IMG/VR virus record: IMGVR_UViG_3300009012_000003
Span: 1-44,857 of that record
Direction: 5' to 3' (one strand)
Origin: a virus
Length of the DNA: 44,857 nucleotides
Below, piece by piece: positions 2,942 to 44,857 of this stretch. How positions within the stretch are numbered: the stretch's first letter is position 1; each line of letters starts with the position of its first letter. The translations under genes were made by a program, and so were the position numbers. The notes below the pieces were generated by a model. It was given only the letters and a program-made list of their open reading frames with translations, ran no database searches and was not told the DNA's origin.

Positions 2942-3410
2942 GCGTCACCTCCATGATCCACGCGGCCATTGTCCCAGGTTCTAGACCAGTTAGTAGCTGC
3001 GGTAGGCTAGCCGGCGTCGGGTGCCACCCTGGATTGTGATAATGCCTGCCATGCGCAATCATCCACCGATTGCGCAGCTCCTGCAGCATGCACGCTGGCC
3101 ACGGCCAGCGGTAACCAGCGTGCGTCCACACATCCCCCGGCATCGGTTGCGCCTGCGCCGGCGCATCGTCGGGGTCCCAGTGGAAGTCCGGCACAGTACC
3201 TGCCGCCACCGCATGGCAATAGTCAACATGATCTCCATGCCACAAGCGCAGGTGCAGCGGTAGATCCCCGTACCCGCGCCACGCGCGCCTGCACATCCTG
3301 CAGTTTTTGCGATACCCGCTTCCATCGTGCACGCGTTTGAACCACGCCACCGTCTGCTGCACCGCGGTCAGCACCACCCCGAGCAGCAAAATCTGCGTCC
3401 CGACGCTCAC
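2895..3410 (-). CDS. Membrane-anchored Cys/His/Trp-rich protein
   Basis: GTG 3410 overlaps the upstream stop (GTGA). N-terminal hydrophobic helix GTQILLLGVVLTAVQQTVAWF. CRMCRR and HLRLWHGDHVDYCH clusters. Confidence 0.55.
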   Translation of the reverse strand: MSVGTQILLLGVVLTAVQQTVAWFKRVHDGSGYRKNCRMCRRAWRGYGDLPLHLRLWHGDHVDYCHAVAAGTVPDFHWDPDDAPAQAQPMPGDVWTHAGYRWPWPACMLQELRNRWMIAHGRHYHNPGWHPTPASLPQLLTGLEPGTMAAWIMEVTHGTDTAANDRSDQPA

Positions 3411-7532: not shown

Positions 7533-8074
7533 TTCGACAGCTCCATGTTCAAGATCACGCTCTTGACCGCGAGCGGCTGGTCCGAGATGTGCACGATCTG
7601 CCCGCCCGACAAGTAATGCTGATGATACACACCCTTCGCGTCCCACCAGTACAGGTAATCACCCGAAGCGCCATACGTTCCATCATCACCCAGTACCTCG
7701 TCCGTGTAGTACGTATTATCGCCAATAACGAGCGGGAAACCCCACGCACTCTCATGCCCATTGATCGCACTGGGCGTCAGCCGCTTGCCGCCTGACGTGA
7801 CCTTGCCGCGCACCGTTGAGTAAATCAGCACCTGCCCTGAGTACGCGCTAATCACATACAGATGCTTGATCGCGCCCGGCTTGTTGTCCGCAAGCAACCT
7901 GTCGTGAATGTTCTGCTGCTCGATCGTGAGACCCGCGCTGTTGGTCGGCACCGCAACCTGCGCCCGCGCGAGTCCCGATGCCGACAGCTGCCGCGGCGCC
8001 TGGTCGCACCCCGCAATCACCAGCAACGCAATCCCCACTGCTCCTACCGCTGCCGCCAGCCAGCGCATGCTCAT
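7529..8074 (-). CDS. Lipoprotein (181 aa)
   Basis: Signal peptide with lipobox LVIAGC (MSMRWLAAAVGAVGIALLVIAGCDQ). ATGA overlap with the upstream gene. Confidence 0.7.
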   Translation of the reverse strand: MSMRWLAAAVGAVGIALLVIAGCDQAPRQLSASGLARAQVAVPTNSAGLTIEQQNIHDRLLADNKPGAIKHLYVISAYSGQVLIYSTVRGKVTSGGKRLTPSAINGHESAWGFPLVIGDNTYYTDEVLGDDGTYGASGDYLYWWDAKGVYHQHYLSGGQIVHISDQPLAVKSVILNMELSK

Positions 8075-8523
8075 TCCTCCACGTATGGTTTGAACTCCCG
8101 CGGCAGCGGCTCAGTCGCCCCCTGGGGCAGCATGCCGCGGTTGGTGAACCGCCAGTTCCACTTGGCCATCTGCGCGTTATAGTCCGCCGCCAGCGTGTTG
8201 TAACTGGCGCGCACTCCCGCCACCTCCGACTGCCAGATCGCCCACTGCTCCCGGTCATCGCGCGCCCACGCGCTGCGCGGCTTGCCGGCATAACTCGCTT
8301 CCAGCTGCTCGAACCGCTTAGCGTACACGCTGACCGTCGCGCGTTTCTGGTCTAGCTGCGCCGCTGCATCCTTGAACCACTCATAGCGCCGCTGCAGCTC
8401 GGCGGGATCAAGCTGCGCACTCACGACGCTGACCGCGCGATGTGCAAACGCGAGCGGCCACAGCACCACGCGCGCCACCAGTCCAAACATGAGCAGCACG
8501 AACACCAACAGCGCCCACTTCAT
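8071..8523 (-). CDS. N-terminally anchored membrane protein, weak LemA-like flavour
   Basis: TM helix MKWALLVFVLLMFGLVARVVLWPLAF followed by a helical region. YNTLAADYNAQMAKWNWRFTN recalls the LemA YN..V..YN motif. ATGA overlap with the nuclease gene. Confidence 0.6.
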   Translation of the reverse strand: MKWALLVFVLLMFGLVARVVLWPLAFAHRAVSVVSAQLDPAELQRRYEWFKDAAAQLDQKRATVSVYAKRFEQLEASYAGKPRSAWARDDREQWAIWQSEVAGVRASYNTLAADYNAQMAKWNWRFTNRGMLPQGATEPLPREFKPYVEE

Positions 8524-9314: not shown

Positions 9315-9537
9315 CCGGCACCTTGATTGGCGGTAGCTCGGGGAACATACGCCGAGCTTCATAGAACGCGTTAGCCGATAGGCTTTGTACACCGTACGCT
9401 ATAACCGGATCTTGCGGACGTACGCCCTTAATAGCCGAAGCAAATAGCGCGAAGGGTGCCAGAACCTCACGCAGTTCTTCGACTTCCGCCACGGCTTGAT
9501 TCAAATCGCTCTGTAGCTGTTCTACGCGCGATGTCAC
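9304..9537 (-). CDS. Hypothetical small protein
   Basis: ORF in a somewhat lower-GC patch. GTG 9537 is preceded by GGGAGCGAGCATT, the same leader type as other early genes. Confidence 0.45.
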   Translation of the reverse strand: MTSRVEQLQSDLNQAVAEVEELREVLAPFALFASAIKGVRPQDPVIAYGVQSLSANAFYEARRMFPELPPIKVPGAI

Positions 9538-9654
9538 AATGCTCGCTCCCGTCGAGCCCAATTCGTTTACGAATGCCGAGCGGGCTGCGCCTGGACTCGC
9601 ATGAGCGCCCGCGCCGTTGTGCGCCGCGGTGCCCGCCCGGCAAGCAGCTTGCTG

Positions 9655-9984: not shown

Positions 9985-9999
9985 ACTGCTGCCTTCGCC

Positions 10000-10025
10000 G
10001 GCAAGCCCGCGCCGTCGGGCTTGCC
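10000..10025 (-). promoter_or_regulatory. Perfect 10-bp GC-rich hairpin in the leader of gene 9655..9984
   Basis: GGCAAGCCCG (10000-10009) pairs with CGGGCTTGCC (10016-10025) around a 6-nt loop. It lies 15 nt upstream of ATG 9984. Confidence 0.4.
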
Positions 10026-10320
10026 ACGCCCCTGCCCGCACTGCGCTACCACGCTCAACAGATGTACCGCCCGTATGTACGGTACGACGCACGCGCTAGC
10101 TTCCAGCCGCCACGTGCGTCTCGGCGTTCGCCAAGAAACGCCTGTCATGGAATGTCTACTACGCACAAGTACGAACCTCCCTACGATGCCGCGAGCGCAA
10201 ACCTCCGGCGCAAGGTCCGCGGGATCGCGAGTCCCCCTGACAGCGGGTACTTGGGGCTTGCGCGCACGAGGCACGCCGAAGGAGCAGCTAGTCTAGCACG
10301 ACACTCGCGCGCGCCGAGCG

Positions 10321-12980: not shown

Positions 12981-13004
12981 GGAAACGTCCCCCCGGCGCA
13001 GCAA

Positions 13005-13546
13005 GCTGCGCCCCGCGCACGGCGGTTAGCGTCACCTTCCCCTTCCGCGTTGCGCGCCCTGGCGAGCGTTCCCGTTGAAACGTGGTAGCGCATCTGCAAG
13101 GTATGTCCGCACGGTTTGACCGTCAAGACCCCCTGCGCCGCGACGCTGCCGCGACGCTGCGGCATGTAAAGCTAGCTTGACTACAATCGTGCGTGCCCGC
13201 GCGTGCCCTAATTGGTCCGAATGTCGCATAACACTCGTCACTGTAAACCTGAGCCGGTTTGGCGCTAACTCGTTTAATGACAACGCATTTTGTCTATATT
13301 TCGCGCGTTTGGTAACGCGCTGTGCCGCAACGCATTACAGAAATCTATAAAATTCAGATCCTATACACCACTCGCGATACTCACCCCCCCCGCTGCGCAC
13401 CCCGCTCACGCGGGTGCGCCTGCAGGGAGGTTCGTGAGTCGCAAAAACCCAACAAAATGAACAAACTACAGTCTAACGTGCTGCGTAGCTTGAGCTTACA
13501 GTCAGTCTTTTGGTAGCGTCAGCGGATGCTCACTCGCAGTGAGCTG
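13005..13546. promoter_or_regulatory. AT-richer 540-bp intergenic region upstream of the helicase operon (candidate origin/promoter region)
   Basis: No convincing ORF and visibly lower GC. Hairpins at 13303-13320, 13395-13419 and 13528-13544. GCGTGCCC is repeated at 10-bp spacing (13191-13208). Confidence 0.4.
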
Positions 13547-13995: not shown

Positions 13996-14017
13996 GTTCG
14001 CCCCCCCCCTTGAAAGA

Positions 14018-14049
14018 GCGCGTACGTACGCGCTAACGTACGTACGCGC
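14018..14049. repeat. 16-bp perfect palindrome GCGCGTACGTACGCGC plus a second CGTACGTACGCGC copy
   Basis: Read directly in the 67-nt gap between 13995 and 14063. The 13-mer copies sit at 14021-14033 and 14037-14049. Confidence 0.8.
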
Positions 14050-14062
14050 ATCCCATTACCTG

Positions 14063-15070: not shown

Positions 15071-15091
15071 GTTCGCTACCTCCCGTGTTTG

Positions 15092-15382
15092 TCATGCAAC
15101 TTGAATGTGCCATTTGCGCAAATCTCCCACGCTGCGCAATGGAGTCCCGATCATCTTGAGCGCCTTTTTAGCCAATAGATCTCCAGCATCGGCGCGGCCT
15201 GTAACATAAGCCGCTGCAGCATGATCGTCAAAAAACCGATCGGTGGATTGATTTACTACTATTGCATCGTCCAGCCGTTGAATCACACGTGTTGTACCGC
15301 CGAGATAATCTACGCTAAAGATTCCCCAGCCTTGACGATACGCTGATTCTTGATCAGCGTCGGTCCATCTTGCGTGACTCAT
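15092..15382 (-). CDS. Hypothetical protein on a low-GC (~50%) cassette
   Basis: 96-aa ORF. I counted about 145/291 G+C. It shares an identical 17-nt start region with the DUF932 gene. Confidence 0.55.
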   Translation of the reverse strand: MSHARWTDADQESAYRQGWGIFSVDYLGGTTRVIQRLDDAIVVNQSTDRFFDDHAAAAYVTGRADAGDLLAKKALKMIGTPLRSVGDLRKWHIQVA

Positions 15383-15416
15383 GTTCGCTCCCCCCGTTTG
15401 GTACGCGTCATGCTCT

Positions 15417-15449
15417 TCACGTACGTGCGTACCTCACGTACGCGTGCGC
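15417..15449. repeat. Two TCACGTACG copies 17 nt apart (CGTACG-centred motif) in an early intergenic region
   Basis: Copies at 15417-15425 and 15434-15442. GTACGTGCGTAC inverted arms at 15421-15432. Confidence 0.7.
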
Positions 15450-15495
15450 TTGAAATTGCTGTCAAGCGGAATCGCGCTTGCGCTTGACCCGGGCG

Positions 15496-15801: not shown

Positions 15802-16068
15802 TCACACCATGAGGGCGTGACTCAGCAGCAGCAGCCGCCGCGATGCGTACGCCCACGCTGTGACCTGCTCTGCCGAGTTCGGCTCCATCGCCGGGACCTG
15901 TCCGGCGCGTTTCTCGCAGCACACTGCGAGCGTGACGATAATTCTGCGAAGCCCGTGCGCATCAACCAGCGCTGCGAGCGCCGCGGCGTCCGGCGCGGGC
16001 TGCGGCGGCCGCGCGAGCGCCCGCACAACCGCTTGCGCCAGCTCCTGATCGTGCGTTAGGCTTTCCAT
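15802..16068 (-). CDS. Hypothetical small protein (88 aa)
   Basis: ATG 16068 (MESLTHDQ). LAVCCEKRAG...W motif. Confidence 0.5.
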   Translation of the reverse strand: MESLTHDQELAQAVVRALARPPQPAPDAAALAALVDAHGLRRIIVTLAVCCEKRAGQVPAMEPNSAEQVTAWAYASRRLLLLSHALMV

Positions 16069-16331
16069 ATGCACCGCTCGAATGGCTGGTCCGAGTCGAT
16101 CAGACCATCTCGATGTGCGCGGCGGAACATCTCGACGTTCGCGTCGGTCGGCTGGATCTCTTCGCAGTCGCCCGATGTGGGGATCTGCCACGGCTGCAAC
16201 GCTGGCGCGTCTAACGTGGCTTGCGCGTTGGTGTTCGGCGGTTCAGACTGCTCGATGGCGCTGGCGCGTGTGCGTGGCGCCGCAGGCGCAGGAAAGTTAG
16301 CTTCCCAGCCCGGCAACGGCTTGGCGTGCAT
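16056..16331 (-). CDS. First gene of the leftward arm; acidic 91-aa protein
   Basis: ATG 16331 is preceded by GGGAGCGAACGTC. Net-acidic composition. Confidence 0.5.
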   Translation of the reverse strand: MHAKPLPGWEANFPAPAAPRTRASAIEQSEPPNTNAQATLDAPALQPWQIPTSGDCEEIQPTDANVEMFRRAHRDGLIDSDQPFERCIWKA

Positions 16332-16419
16332 GACGTTCGCTCCCGTAGCGCGGTCGCTGCCGACCCGAGGCGGGCGCCTCTGCGATCTTGCGAGCGAGTC
16401 CATCCGCGTTACTGCGGGT

Positions 16420-16448
16420 AAGGTAGTACACTTCCTGGGCGCTGTCAA
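16420..16448 (-). promoter_or_regulatory. Candidate sigma70-type leftward early promoter
   Basis: On the minus strand: TTGACA (16448-16443), 17-nt spacer, TACCTT (16425-16420). About 85 nt upstream of ATG 16331. Confidence 0.4.
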
Positions 16449-16500
16449 GCGGTTTCTGCGTGCGACAGTGAGATAGTTCGCTAGTCTCGCCGTGGTCCCG

Positions 16501-16518
16501 GTGTAGATATATCGACAC
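16501..16518. promoter_or_regulatory. Operator-like 18-bp near-palindrome GTGTAGATATATCGACAC
   Basis: 8 of 9 symmetric pairs with an AT-rich centre. Lies between the divergent promoter candidates. A second palindrome, GTTTCACGTGGAAC, sits at 16544-16557. Confidence 0.35.
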
Positions 16519-16726
16519 TTCCGCGGTGCCCGCGTGTGCGCATGTTTCACGTGGAACACCGCTCGCGCGATACCGTAACCGCTTGCGCCGCAACGGCTTG
16601 CGCAGTCGCCGCAGCGCTTGCGCCGTCCCCGGGTGTCCCCCAACGGCGCGCGCGAGTACTGGTACTTAGTCCCCCACACACCCGCCAGACGCTAGCTCAA
16701 TTTACAAACCCGGGACAAAATTTCCC

Positions 16727-16754
16727 TTGACGCGCGGCCAGCGCGCGTGATACT
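16727..16754 (+). promoter_or_regulatory. Candidate sigma70-type rightward promoter P1
   Basis: TTGACG (16727-16732), 16-nt spacer, GATACT (16749-16754). An A/T-rich UP-like stretch (ACAAAATTT) lies just upstream. Confidence 0.45.
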
Positions 16755-16909
16755 ACGCATAATGCCCCCGGAGGGGTATGCGCCCGGCGCGCTGTGCACG
16801 AACCTCAGCGTATACTGCGCTTCATACTGGGCTCCGGAGGGAGTGCACGCCGCGGCAGCACGAACCGCCGCGCGCCGACCACACCGGCACCACGTGCGCG
16901 TGATCGTCC

Positions 16910-16940
16910 TTGACGCAGCGTGGGGCGAACGCAGTATCAT
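16910..16940 (+). promoter_or_regulatory. Candidate rightward promoter P2 (long spacer)
   Basis: TTGACG (16910-16915), 19-nt spacer, TATCAT (16935-16940). Confidence 0.25.
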
Positions 16941-16979
16941 GCGCGGCACCTCCGGTGTCCCCCGGCGGCGCGGTACGCG

Positions 16980-17030
16980 AGCGGTGGCACGAGCGCAATT
17001 GGGAAGCGCGGTGCCACCGCTTCGTTGTGC
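16980..17030 (+). terminator. 11-bp GC-rich stem-loop followed by a U-containing tail (terminator-like, plus strand only)
   Basis: AGCGGTGGCAC (16980-16990) pairs with GTGCCACCGCT (17011-17021), then TCGTTGTG follows. The minus-strand version has no T tail. Confidence 0.3.
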
Positions 17031-17098
17031 GCACCGGCGTTGCGCGCCCGCAGTGGCAGCAACGATTGCGTCCGCTGCTGGCGCGGCTTGCGCACATG

Positions 17099-17128
17099 TT
17101 GACAGCACGCGGCACCGGCGTGCATCGT
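17099..17128 (+). promoter_or_regulatory. Candidate rightward promoter P3 (weak -10)
   Basis: TTGACA (17099-17104), 18-nt spacer, CATCGT. The hairpin GGGTGCA-ccgc-TGCACCC at 17132-17149 follows. Confidence 0.2.
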
Positions 17129-17266
17129 AGTGGGTGCACCGCTGCACCCGGCGCCAGTCGCGTGCGCGGGGCTGTTCGCTACGCTCGGCGTCGTGTGAGT
17201 TCGTCCGCGGCGCCGAGCACCCGTCGCGCAGCGCGCTGCGCACCCCACCACGCGAGGACCCCGCGG

Positions 17267-17554
17267 GTGCCGCCCGAACCTATCGCTGCGAGCGCGCGCG
17301 AGCGTGAAGCCGCCCTGAAGCCCATCATTGAGACCTGCGCGGAAGTGCGCATCGTGCTCGGCGCCGCTGGGCTTGTCATCACGAGCGCGAGCGGCGCGGG
17401 CGGTGTCCTCACGCTCGACGTGGACAACGCACGCCAGCTCGTGGGTGCGCTGGCGCGCGCATTGGCGCGCTACGACGGAGCGCGCAAGCGCAGCGCGTAC
17501 GCGCGGCGCAGCTGGCTTGCGCGGCACCCGAGCGGTGCGGTCGATGGTGCGTAG
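17267..17554 (+). CDS. Possible first rightward gene (95 aa), hypothetical
   Basis: GTG 17267 with GAGGA 7 nt upstream. Only the C-terminal part of track ORF 16910..17554 looks protein-like. Confidence 0.35.
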   Translation: MPPEPIAASAREREAALKPIIETCAEVRIVLGAAGLVITSASGAGGVLTLDVDNARQLVGALARALARYDGARKRSAYARRSWLARHPSGAVDGA

Positions 17555-17754
17555 CGCGTGGGTGCGCCCCGAGACGCGAACGATCCCGCGGTGCGGCCCC
17601 GCGGCCGGGCGCGTCGGAGGGCGCACATTTTCGCTGCCGCGAAAATAGCGTTCGCGCCACCCGCGCTGCGCAACGCAGTTCGTGTCGGTGGCGCGAAATC
17701 AGTTGACACGCGCACCGCGCGTGCGCACGCTCGCGCACGTGATTGACGACCCCC

Positions 17755-17818
17755 ACGATACGCGCACTGACGAGGCGGATGGCGACATGCGCGCACCCGA
17801 CGATACGCGTACTGACGA
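17755..17818 (+). repeat. Two 19-nt direct repeats ACGATACGCG(C/T)ACTGACGA, 45 bp apart
   Basis: Copies at 17755-17773 and 17800-17818, 18/19 identical. They lie at the 5' end of the gene preceding the terminase block. Confidence 0.8.
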
Positions 17819-18485
17819 CTCGCTCGATGCGCTCGACAAGGCGCTCGCAGGCGCGGCGACGCGCCTGCCCGGCCGCCCGCGCGGTAGCAAGAACAGCTTC
17901 CCCAAGCGCAACGCGCGCCTGTTCCCCCCGCCCTCGCGCACGCGCCCCGAGGCGGTAGACCCGCTGCTCGCAGCCCCGCGCGCCCTCGCCCTGAGTGCCA
18001 TCGCCGATCGCGACGAGCGCGCCCGGCGCCTGACTGAGCTGCTGCGCAGTGACGGTGTCAGCGGGGCCGAGATCGTAGCTGCCGTGCGGCAGCTGGAGAA
18101 CATGCAGGGCACAAGCGCGGGCGGCGCGGACGTGCACCTGACCTACGCCGACCAGTTGGCGCTGCTGGTGCGTCTGCTCGCGAGCGTCCCGCACGGCATG
18201 CTGAGCGAGGCGCTCGCGCGGCTGGGCCGCCGCCGCAGCCAGCAGCAGGTGCGCGTGTCGGCGATGGGGCCACCCACGCTGCCCACGTGGAGCAGCGCCG
18301 ACGCAGTGCCCGTCGCGCCAGCGGTTGAACTGCCGCGCGACGGCGCCGGTGTGGTCGTCCCGGCGGGCCCGGCGGGCCACCCCAAAAACTCCCACCCCAC
18401 CCCCGCCATCAGCACTGCGGTCCCGAGCTTCGAGCCACCCGCCGCGGAGACGATCCATGCCGGAATCGACCCCCGCAGCTGCTGA
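17787..18485 (+). CDS. Hypothetical protein; weak candidate for small terminase / DNA-binding
   Basis: ATG 17787 (alternative GTG 17682). GRPRGSKN AT-hook-like motif. Lies four genes upstream of the large terminase. Confidence 0.45.
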   Translation: MRAPDDTRTDDSLDALDKALAGAATRLPGRPRGSKNSFPKRNARLFPPPSRTRPEAVDPLLAAPRALALSAIADRDERARRLTELLRSDGVSGAEIVAAVRQLENMQGTSAGGADVHLTYADQLALLVRLLASVPHGMLSEALARLGRRRSQQQVRVSAMGPPTLPTWSSADAVPVAPAVELPRDGAGVVVPAGPAGHPKNSHPTPAISTAVPSFEPPAAETIHAGIDPRSC

Positions 18486-26719: not shown

Positions 26720-26729
26720 CAGAAGGTGG

Positions 26730-26788
26730 CTGCCCGGTCGAGGGACGGGCAGTTGCTGGCGCGAGCAGGACGGTGCGAGCCGTCCTGC
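26730..26788 (+). terminator. Two tandem perfect hairpins just downstream of the capsid gene
   Basis: CTGCCCG/CGGGCAG (26730-26752) followed by TTGCTGG, then GCAGGACGG/CCGTCCTGC (26765-26788). Confidence 0.4.
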
Positions 26789-26866
26789 CGCGTCACCGCC
26801 CTGACGGGCGTGGCCACAATCACTGCATGTCAAGCCTTTTACAAGCTGCTAGCAAGGGAGACACCA

Positions 26867-44547: not shown

Positions 44548-44816
44548 TAGTGCACCGGCTCGTCGCCGGCATCGTCAGCGCCAGGTGGCACCGTGCCGGC
44601 GTGCATCTCTAGCGCTGCGCGCAGCTCGCGCACCAGCTCCACGTCACTCGCATCATCAGTCGCCACCGCCACTGCCTGCACCGCATCCCCGACCGCGCGC
44701 AGCCCCACGAGCACCAGTGTGCCGGGACGCTCATGGGCGCGCTTCAAGCACGCCACCACGAGCTGGATCGCCTTCTGCTCCAGTGACTTGCGTGACGCGT
44801 TGGCGCGGCGGCTCAC
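44547..44816 (-). CDS. Hypothetical protein (89 aa); its GTG start lies in the terminal duplication
   Basis: GTG 44816 equals position 82 of the left copy. It overlaps the polymerase TGA (79-81) as GTGA once the circle is closed. Confidence 0.55.
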   Translation of the reverse strand: MSRRANASRKSLEQKAIQLVVACLKRAHERPGTLVLVGLRAVGDAVQAVAVATDDASDVELVRELRAALEMHAGTVPPGADDAGDEPVH

Positions 44817-44857
44817 GGCGTCACCTCCGTCATGCTATCCTTGTTCCAGTTCGGACC
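44735..44857. repeat. Terminal direct duplication, right copy (identical to 1..123)
   Basis: Read directly, 123/123 identical. Confidence 0.95.

Follow-up and report, generated by a model that had tools for sequence, protein, structure and literature searches.

A non-coding gap between the two arms of an uncultured podovirus genome: a divergent control region and probable junction of the virion DNA ends

What is almost a kilobase of DNA without genes doing at the point where the two halves of a phage genome diverge? The question is raised by positions 16332-17266 of the IMG/VR virus record IMGVR_UViG_3300009012_000003, a stretch of 44,857 nucleotides (nt) that was analysed as a whole and is called the window here. 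This gap is the largest non-coding one in the window; it is without coding sequence and lies at a strand switch. A first-pass annotation had described it as a divergent control region with stacked promoters and a structured leader, and had offered regulatory or decoy RNAs, an origin, or a packaging region as its function. The gap is probably a divergent control region of the type found in T7 and LUZ24, most likely containing the junction of the virion DNA ends together with early promoters. Among the functions offered earlier, a packaging region is the one favoured by the comparative evidence.

The two ends of the window share 123 identical base pairs (bp) (1-123 = 44735-44857), and the window is therefore a circular assembly of about 44.7 kb. 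This identity, which falls in the region of the DNA polymerase gene, is an overlap of the assembly and has no biological meaning as a repeat. The window is thus the circularly assembled, 44.7-kb genome of an uncultured podovirus. No near relative was found in the phage collection, and cultured phages give protein matches of less than about 30% identity at best. Contigs of the same phage from other metagenomes, which have arbitrary break points, are identical to the window save for one homopolymer near 14010, and show zero variation inside 16332-17266. The homopolymer is a poly-C/G run (~14001-14010) in the ribosome-binding region of the DUF932 gene; it reads C9 in the window and C10 in contig L001, and contig L002 begins exactly at this run.

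The genes are arranged in two units. On the minus strand, the genes extend leftward from 16331 to 79 and continue round the circle as far as 43513. They encode a DUF932 protein, an AAA_25 primase/helicase, a Sak4-like protein, an ATPase, an HNH endonuclease, DNA polymerase A and, at the far end of the leftward unit, a GH108 endolysin. Plus-strand genes run from 17267 to 43503 and comprise five small open reading frames (ORFs), the terminase large subunit (589 aa), an SU10-type portal and major capsid protein, an adaptor, and tail genes. Judged by gene strands, two genome-spanning units diverge at 16332-17266 and converge near 43.5 kb, in agreement with the earlier description of a divergent control region. 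All transcription appears to originate in the gap.

Evidence that the gap is non-coding comes from several sources. In a scan with a codon log-likelihood model trained on 16 confident genes, no positive coding frame was found between ~16440 and ~17220. Gap ORFs of at least 20 amino acids (aa) that are preceded by a Shine-Dalgarno sequence all score negative (-0.2 to -0.5 per codon), and five flanking small genes score +0.11 to +0.36 per codon. In two independent metagenome assemblies of the phage, the stored gene calls leave the identical 935 bp empty. The shadow ORFs of the gap have no matches in Pfam or PHROG and no homologues in about 100 related loci, and the gap has no residual codon periodicity and no transfer RNA (tRNA) genes. 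The claim that about 0.93 kb lacks a credible ORF is upheld by these results. The genome had also been called otherwise gap-free, which is incorrect: other gaps of 336-566 bp occur at 2942-3406, 9315-9654, 9985-10320 and 12981-13546, and a further one at 15071-15495. The two genes that flank the gap (91 and 95 aa) have zero family matches in Pfam and PHROGs, and the 95-aa protein matched only itself among 1.84 billion representative proteins.

The related loci (~100, from soil and sediment metagenomes) were reached via terminase homologues of 31-64% identity. About 25 distinct relatives have a minus-to-plus switch with a gap of 260-1600 bp, located 1.5-4.5 kb upstream of the terminase gene. 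Possession of a long divergent gap is therefore a trait of the family. The first-pass annotation had noted that intact protein genes at this place in relatives would make the gap simply decayed coding DNA; the relatives instead have long empty gaps, with no shadow-ORF homologue there. The sequence of the gap gave zero significant alignments to the ~100 loci (blastn with word size 9, nhmmer), and the flanking small genes are not common to them. The window gap shares no more 10-mers with the relatives' gaps than with random coding segments. Two blocks noticed by eye, ACAAAATTTC and CGGTGTAGATA, were rejected as evidence of conservation, as 10-mer sharing is at the level of random coding sequence.

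An indication of how the genome is packaged can be found in the terminase. The terminase-family profile matches that of T7 gp19 (hhalign probability 93.5%, E 2.3e-7, 229 columns). Only two sequence matches of the terminase were found in the PDB, 8dgc_E (terminase, large subunit; E 0.012) and 4bij_A (DNA maturase B; E 0.21), both of which we take to be T7-type terminases. Terminases of the T7 gp19 type package genomes with short direct terminal repeats. The T7 repeat is 160 bp long, and the left end of T7 has 924 non-coding bp, with the leftward promoter A0 and the rightward promoters A1-A3, followed by gene 0.3. The gap is similar in having ~0.92 kb of non-coding DNA before the first gene, and one leftward and three rightward host-polymerase promoters (candidates in the window, two of the rightward ones credible and one weak), 125-190 bp apart. 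A short repeat in the window, inferred from a C-run element described below, would be the counterpart of the T7 repeat. Unlike in T7, the genes of the window lie on two divergent arms and not on one strand, and the promoters match the consensus less well. An earlier comparison with the A1/A2/A3 battery of T7 gains support from the gp19 profile match and by the layout of the T7 left end, but not in calling the promoters strong, and the third of them is weak. T7 also has an RNA polymerase of its own; no match to a phage RNA polymerase was found in a partial ORF set (the ten largest ORFs searched in PHROGs, smaller ORFs in Pfam). The only ORF of RNA polymerase size (882 aa) has no PHROG match and sits in the tail module.

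Another parallel in genome layout can be found in the LUZ24-like phages. These have linear genomes with direct terminal repeats, in which two transcription units start at the ends and converge. The units of the window likewise diverge from one gap on the circle and converge opposite. In LUZ24, the repeat occupies 1-184, annotated promoters with sigma-70 consensus are at 517 and 621, and the first gene starts at 1020; the other end has 861 non-coding bp and two promoters. In phage tf, the repeat occupies 1-186, four tandem promoters lie at 338-821, and the first gene starts at 1130 (PMC3517423). The LUZ24 promoters were identified in a promoter trap, and ONT-cappable-seq has confirmed four of them (PMC10914365). 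In Bruynoghevirus LUZ24, Krylovvirus tf and also phage phiM5 of Sinorhizobium, the non-coding ends are 0.6-1.1 kb long, with two to four tandem sigma-70 promoters each (PMC3517423; PMC10914365). They adjoin a terminal repeat of 184-357 bp. When LUZ24 and tf are drawn as circles, the result is a non-coding divergent gap of 1.7-1.9 kb full of tandem promoters, which is the anatomy seen in the window. The junction in the window is shorter (0.94 kb), the promoter array faces the terminase arm and not the replication arm, and there are no tRNA genes. Several Bruynoghevirus records start at the same base as LUZ24, and many others are deposited in permuted form with the repeat buried internally, as would hold for the window.

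The capsid protein shares 26-31% identity with those of several cultured phages, among them the Pseudomonas phages SL4 and Bjorn and the Sinorhizobium phage phiM5; conserved proteins of LUZ24 type are noted in the phiM5 record. When the portal protein was searched against the phage collection by tblastn, none of the records returned was LUZ24-like.

Promoter-like sites occur in both directions. Five plus-strand hexamers of the form TTGAC(A/G) had been reported, and all were located (16727, 16910, 17099, 17703 and 17743). There are 66 TTGACR hexamers in the window where 33 are expected, and they cluster inside genes too. Because of this two-fold, genome-wide excess, the cluster of hexamers is weak evidence when taken alone. 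Those at 17703 and 17743, which are located at or within the following ORF, lack a usable -10, so that of the five stacked promoters proposed earlier two to three are credible. These are named P1, P2 and P3 (Table 1). P1 was read in the sequence as described by the first-pass annotation (TTGACG-16-GATACT with an upstream A/T stretch, 16700-16723), and it is the only one of the five sites to pass a sigma-70 scan; it also has a second -10-like hexamer, CATAAT, at 16758-16763. P2 has a good -10 solely at a 19-nt spacer, and the CATCGT of P3 fails the -10 criterion of the scan. The even spacing of the first three hexamers does not reflect a tandem duplication, as three 185-bp units align with identity at chance level.

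A candidate leftward promoter, PL, was missed in the first pass. Its predicted start at ~16413 would leave a leader of ~80 nt to the Shine-Dalgarno sequence GGGAG (16344-16340) and the ATG at 16331. The -10 and spacer of PL are found in identical form at a promoter-like site of the primase/helicase gene (13126, minus strand). The pattern TTGACN-N16-19-TAnnnT has six sites in the window where 0.74 are expected; three of the six, including PL and P2, are intergenic and co-oriented with genes. The -35 hexamer is TTGACA in PL and P3 and TTGACG in P1 and P2. In the same scan, the candidates match 9-10 of 12 consensus positions, whereas validated promoters of LUZ24 and tf match 11 of 12, and for this reason the word "strong" is not retained. 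Tandem rightward sigma-70-like promoters at P1 and P2 are plausible on this evidence. A host RNA polymerase of the sigma-70 type would start leftward at PL and feed the replication and lysis arm, and would start rightward at P1, P2 and perhaps P3 to feed the arm of the small ORFan genes, the terminase and the structural genes.

The candidate for the genome terminus is a C-run element between PL and P1 that was also missed in the first pass. Its bipartite pattern, GTCCCCC-N20-25-TAGYCCCC, occurs once in the window (0.00 expected), and otherwise only in the divergent gaps of relatives L014 and L019, with the same orientation and spacing. A looser composite, C{3,}N{2-6}GTC{5,}, occurs 14 times in 480 kb, and five of these are in divergent gaps, which make up 3.9% of the sequence. 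This is a 13-fold enrichment in divergent gaps over 26 loci (Poisson p 4e-5, with the pattern defined post hoc). A scan of IMG/VR with the bipartite pattern was uninformative, giving more than 119 mostly unrelated matches in which a terminase homologue was present only for relatives already known.

The element resembles mapped termini of LUZ24-like phages and is a candidate cleavage site. It reads CCCCGGGTGTCCCCC at 16627 in the window and CCCCCCGGAGTCCCCCC in relative L003, and the genomes of LUZ24 and tf start with CCCCCAGGAGTCCCCC and CCCCGGG, respectively. The repeat of LUZ24 and tf ends just before ATCCCTTGA(T/C); in an alignment, the window has TTTCCCTTGACG at 16721, just before P1, and the terminal repeat may end near 16720. 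Equivalent distances from the C-run to this boundary are ~94 bp in the window, ~99 bp in L003 and ~105 bp in L006. We have moderate confidence that the gap is a collapsed junction of virion DNA ends with a short repeat from ~16627. The ends of the linear virion DNA would then join in the gap, and the direct terminal repeat would begin at the C-run element near 16627. This terminus reading draws on the C-run element as seen in collapsed circular assemblies.

Several observations weigh against a terminus here. The C-run pattern was defined post hoc and is present in just 5 of 26 relatives, and no inverted G-run copy marks the right boundary, unlike in LUZ24 and tf. The terminase of the window is without similarity to those of LUZ24 and phiM5, so that the likeness of the terminus motifs might reflect convergence, or mere coincidence in DNA rich in C and G. 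The three assemblies of the phage break at unrelated points (window position 1, ~2671 and 14001), as would also be expected if the genome were circularly permuted. Where near-complete contigs of relatives stop close to the terminase gene, they stop in coding DNA and not in the gap; the ends of contigs L049, L092 and L057 were considered as physical ends and rejected for this reason. The promoters are only moderate matches to the consensus, and the long leader from P1 to the first gene is absent from the closest relatives, L003 and L006, as is the strong hairpin within it (T1).

The alternative that fares best is a pure divergent promoter and operator region in a circularly permuted, headful-packaged genome, with no physical end in the gap. 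It is possible but doubtful. Here the GCTTGCGC copies, the C-run motifs and the palindromes would be bound by phage or host regulators responsible for the timing of the early and late arms, on the model of the A2b/A2c/A3 region of phi29 or of PR/PRM of lambda. Promoters that face both directions fit this arrangement, and so do the short repeats and palindromes between PL and P1, for instance the palindrome at 16544-16557, a possible operator. GCTTGCGC occurs 32 times in the window against 10.6 expected, with a local cluster of eight copies in 16031-17522, and every relative has its own set of repeats at the same place. The circularisation of the assemblies with arbitrary break points also agrees with it. 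The T7-like terminase profile, however, argues against headful packaging, the sole element conserved across relatives resembles mapped termini, and no DNA-binding regulator was detected among ~30 scanned proteins.

The hairpin T1 has a part both in the favoured reading and in a second, unlikely alternative, in which a regulatory non-coding RNA is the main product of the gap. Found in a terminator scan, T1 has a core stem of 10 bp that extends to ~14 bp, and a tail, UUCGUUGUG, in which the U-tract is imperfect. The stem (16977-17025) has a free energy of -33 kcal/mol and a z score of -4.66 (1 of 200 shuffles as good). T1 looks like an intrinsic terminator, and termination is predicted there. 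It lies ~82 nt past the start of P2 and ~268 nt past that of P1, and in the favoured reading it probably ends or attenuates part of the transcription from both, giving short leader RNAs. A double strong hairpin of comparable strength (26725-26795, z -4.8, weak U-tracts) stands directly 3' of the major capsid gene and is probably a terminator.

Each of the first three promoters had been said to be followed by a stable hairpin. This is true of the second, in T1, whereas those at 16768-16785 (z -0.8) and 17132-17149 (z -1.3) match shuffled sequence. The 507-nt leader, which had been called highly structured, is only modestly more stable than shuffles (z -2.6, 2 of 100 as good), with one hairpin carrying the signal; the minus strand of the leader gives z +0.1. 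The idea that strong RNA structure is conserved in the whole family is not supported: the gaps of relatives have moderately stable 70-nt segments that are rarely the best of their genome.

Transcripts from P2 or P1 to T1 would be RNAs of ~82 and ~268 nt. A second, direct copy of the C-run would lie at the 5' end of the P2 transcript; its 20/24 identity with the first copy was matched in 1 of 60 simulations. It contains the anti-Shine-Dalgarno-like sequences CACCUCC/UCCCCC, which could pair with G-rich ribosome-binding sites on messenger RNAs of the phage or its host; those of the phage are GGGAG/GGGGGA. Alternatively, the RNA might act in cis on polymerase. In lambda, a 6S RNA is made between PR' and tR', where Q acts in antitermination. 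Pseudomonas phage transcripts commonly terminate early, within their 5' leaders, and short RNAs derived from leaders have been found in six of these phages, including LUZ24 (PMC10914365). The gap resembles these systems in having a constitutive-looking promoter followed within 80-270 nt by a strong hairpin, upstream of the terminase and structural operon (a predicted arrangement). It differs from them in that T1 is unconserved in the closest relatives, and both termination and read-through are predictions. No Pfam match to a Q-family antiterminator was found among ~30 scanned small proteins.

Database searches do not favour a known RNA. The Rfam 15 covariance search of the whole window gave zero matches at gathering thresholds, so that no family supports the regulatory RNA suggested earlier, and in a permissive search of the gap the best local matches scored 15-23 bits against thresholds of 65-112. 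The best match over 16934-17025 was CcsR1 (14.8 bits against a gathering threshold of 65.3, E 1.9). Since this segment is unconserved in any relative, covariation support is lacking. In the predicted fold some of the C-rich 5' part is base-paired, and the U-tract is poor. More unlikely still is the specific proposal that P2 (~16947) to T1 (~17029) encodes a small RNA of ~82 nt with a 5' end, CACCUCCGGUGUCCCCC, that mimics the anti-Shine-Dalgarno sequence of 16S ribosomal RNA and pairs with GGGAG/GGGGGA sites to time translation. If this were true, the same C-run sequence would be both a DNA packaging signal and an RNA seed.

A replication origin, with the GCTTGCGC copies as iterons and activated by transcription as at the primary origin of T7, has about the same low probability as a regulatory RNA in general. 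The eight clustered copies and the adjacent promoters would suit it, and AT skew switches sign here. This switch coincides with the change in transcription direction and is thus uninformative about an origin. The gap has a G+C content of 61-75% with no AT-rich segment for unwinding, and the 120 bp of lowest G+C in the genome (44%) are at 13241-13360, within the gap that precedes the AAA_25 primase/helicase gene. That gap (12981-13546, 566 bp) is the second largest in the window; it also contains the promoter-like TTGACG-17-TACCTT at 13126 (minus strand), as well as a tandem repeat of GCAGCGTCGCGG. As a candidate origin it is preferable to 16332-17266.

Decayed coding DNA, with remnants of genes intact in relatives, is the least probable explanation and very unlikely: although the 500-nt leader from P1 to the first gene is lineage-specific and the early regions of the family are highly variable, the shadow ORFs match nothing in the related loci or in Pfam and PHROGs, codon periodicity is gone, and the relatives too have empty gaps at this position.

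A control region that also holds the DNA ends is already known in T7, LUZ24 and tf, each of which has some 0.9-1.1 kb of non-coding DNA composed of a terminal repeat, tandem host promoters and a leader, and the gap is therefore ordinary in kind and reveals no new kind of mechanism. The clade of podoviruses to which the phage belongs, from soil and sediment, is widespread and wholly uncultured, and for it the gap marks the places where all transcription is likely to start and, probably, the ends used in packaging. The gains are the correct linearisation and annotation of such genomes and a terminus motif that can be tested. It is also a warning that circular metagenome assemblies can hide terminal repeats within an intergenic gap that seems odd.

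Table 1. Features of the gap at 16332-17266 and its immediate surroundings, in window coordinates.
Feature	Position	Strand	Details
Non-coding divergent intergenic region	16332..17266	.	935 bp; codon scans, stored gene calls, null family searches
First leftward gene, 91 aa	16056-16331	-	Left flank of the gap
PL, leftward sigma-70-like promoter	16420..16448	-	TTGACA 16448-16443, 17-nt spacer, TACCTT 16425-16420
Near-perfect 14-bp palindrome GTTTCACGTGGAAC	16544..16557	.	Between PL and P1; read directly, no statistics
Three direct copies of GCTTGCGC	16581..16623	+	Spaced 15 and 20 bp
C-run element	16627..16675	+	CCCCGGGTGTCCCCC, 25 nt, TAGTCCCCC; candidate genome terminus/terminase recognition site
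Candidate direct terminal repeat, ~94 bp	16627..16720	.	Inferred only; right boundary uncertain
P1, candidate promoter	16727..16754	+	TTGACG, 16-nt spacer, GATACT; predicted start ~16761
P2, candidate promoter	16910..16940	+	TTGACG, 19-nt spacer, TATCAT; predicted start ~16947
Second direct C-run copy, CCTCCGGTGTCCCCCGGCGGCGCG	16949..16972	+	20/24 identical to 16627-16650
T1, strong hairpin, terminator-/attenuator-like	16977..17029	+	Perfect 10-bp core GCGGTGGCAC/GTGCCACCGC, then TTCGTTGTG
P3, weak candidate promoter downstream of T1	17099..17128	+	TTGACA, 18-nt spacer, CATCGT
Hairpin just upstream of the 95-aa gene ribosome-binding site	17183..17218	+	z -1.87, marginal against chance
First rightward gene, 95 aa, GTG start, ORFan	17267..17554	+	Codon score +0.22 per codon
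Second non-coding gap	17555..17720	+	Hairpins 17556-17648 (z -2.27); nested palindrome 17651-17697

Some further structures were noticed around the gap and in related genomes. The 70-nt segment starting at 17161, which covers the hairpin before the 95-aa gene, ranks 8 of 4479. The nested palindrome at 17651-17697, TTCGCGCCACC...GGTGGCGCGAA, has a z score of -3.69 (0 of 200 shuffles as good) and is followed at once by the TTGACA at 17703; in its arms (GGTGGCRC) it is similar to T1. In the gap of L006, positions 1050-1143 hold a nested palindrome of ~90 bp (z -4.07, 0 of 200 shuffles as good) with the core TGGCACGC/GCGTGCCA and flanking ATGCAT repeats. This core resembles the TGGCAC/GTGCCA arms of T1. 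The possibility that the TGGCAC arms, in T1 and in the L006 palindrome, are sigma-54 promoters was rejected, as the GG-to-GC spacing, judged by eye, is off consensus.

Other palindromes and blocks contain or accompany C-runs. The terminal repeat of T7 (L234) contains a palindrome at 24-39, TTCCCCCATAGGGGGTA (C5-ATA-G5), which is loosely like the C5/G4-6 palindromes in gaps of the family, such as CCCCCGGAGGGG at 16765-16776 of the window and GGGGGGTCCCCCC in L006. A block of ~28 nt, TAGTTGACATAATGG(N2)CTTAT(N)CGAC, is common to the gaps of L014 (~8470-8500), L019 (~7990-8025) and L070 (~2100-2130), and was not found in the window. It lies ~70-80 nt from the C-run motif, in the opposite relative orientation in L070.

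The 254-aa ORF that precedes the terminase gene (17721-18485) has conserved counterparts in L003 and L004 and is a candidate for the small terminase subunit. It contains a 23-nt direct repeat (17751-17773/17796-17818, 91% identical, 45 bp apart) that encodes a repeated DDxxDTRTD peptide.

On the leftward arm, a 96-aa ORF at 15092-15382 (minus strand) is absent from the stored gene calls yet matches PHROG 38215 (E 3e-5); it has a negative codon score and lies in a patch of low G+C. Palindromes rich in CGTACGT, for example GCGCGTACGTACGTTAGCGCGTACGTACGCGC, are present at 13996-14062 and ~15400-15440, just upstream of the DUF932 gene and of this ORF, and may be a shared operator.

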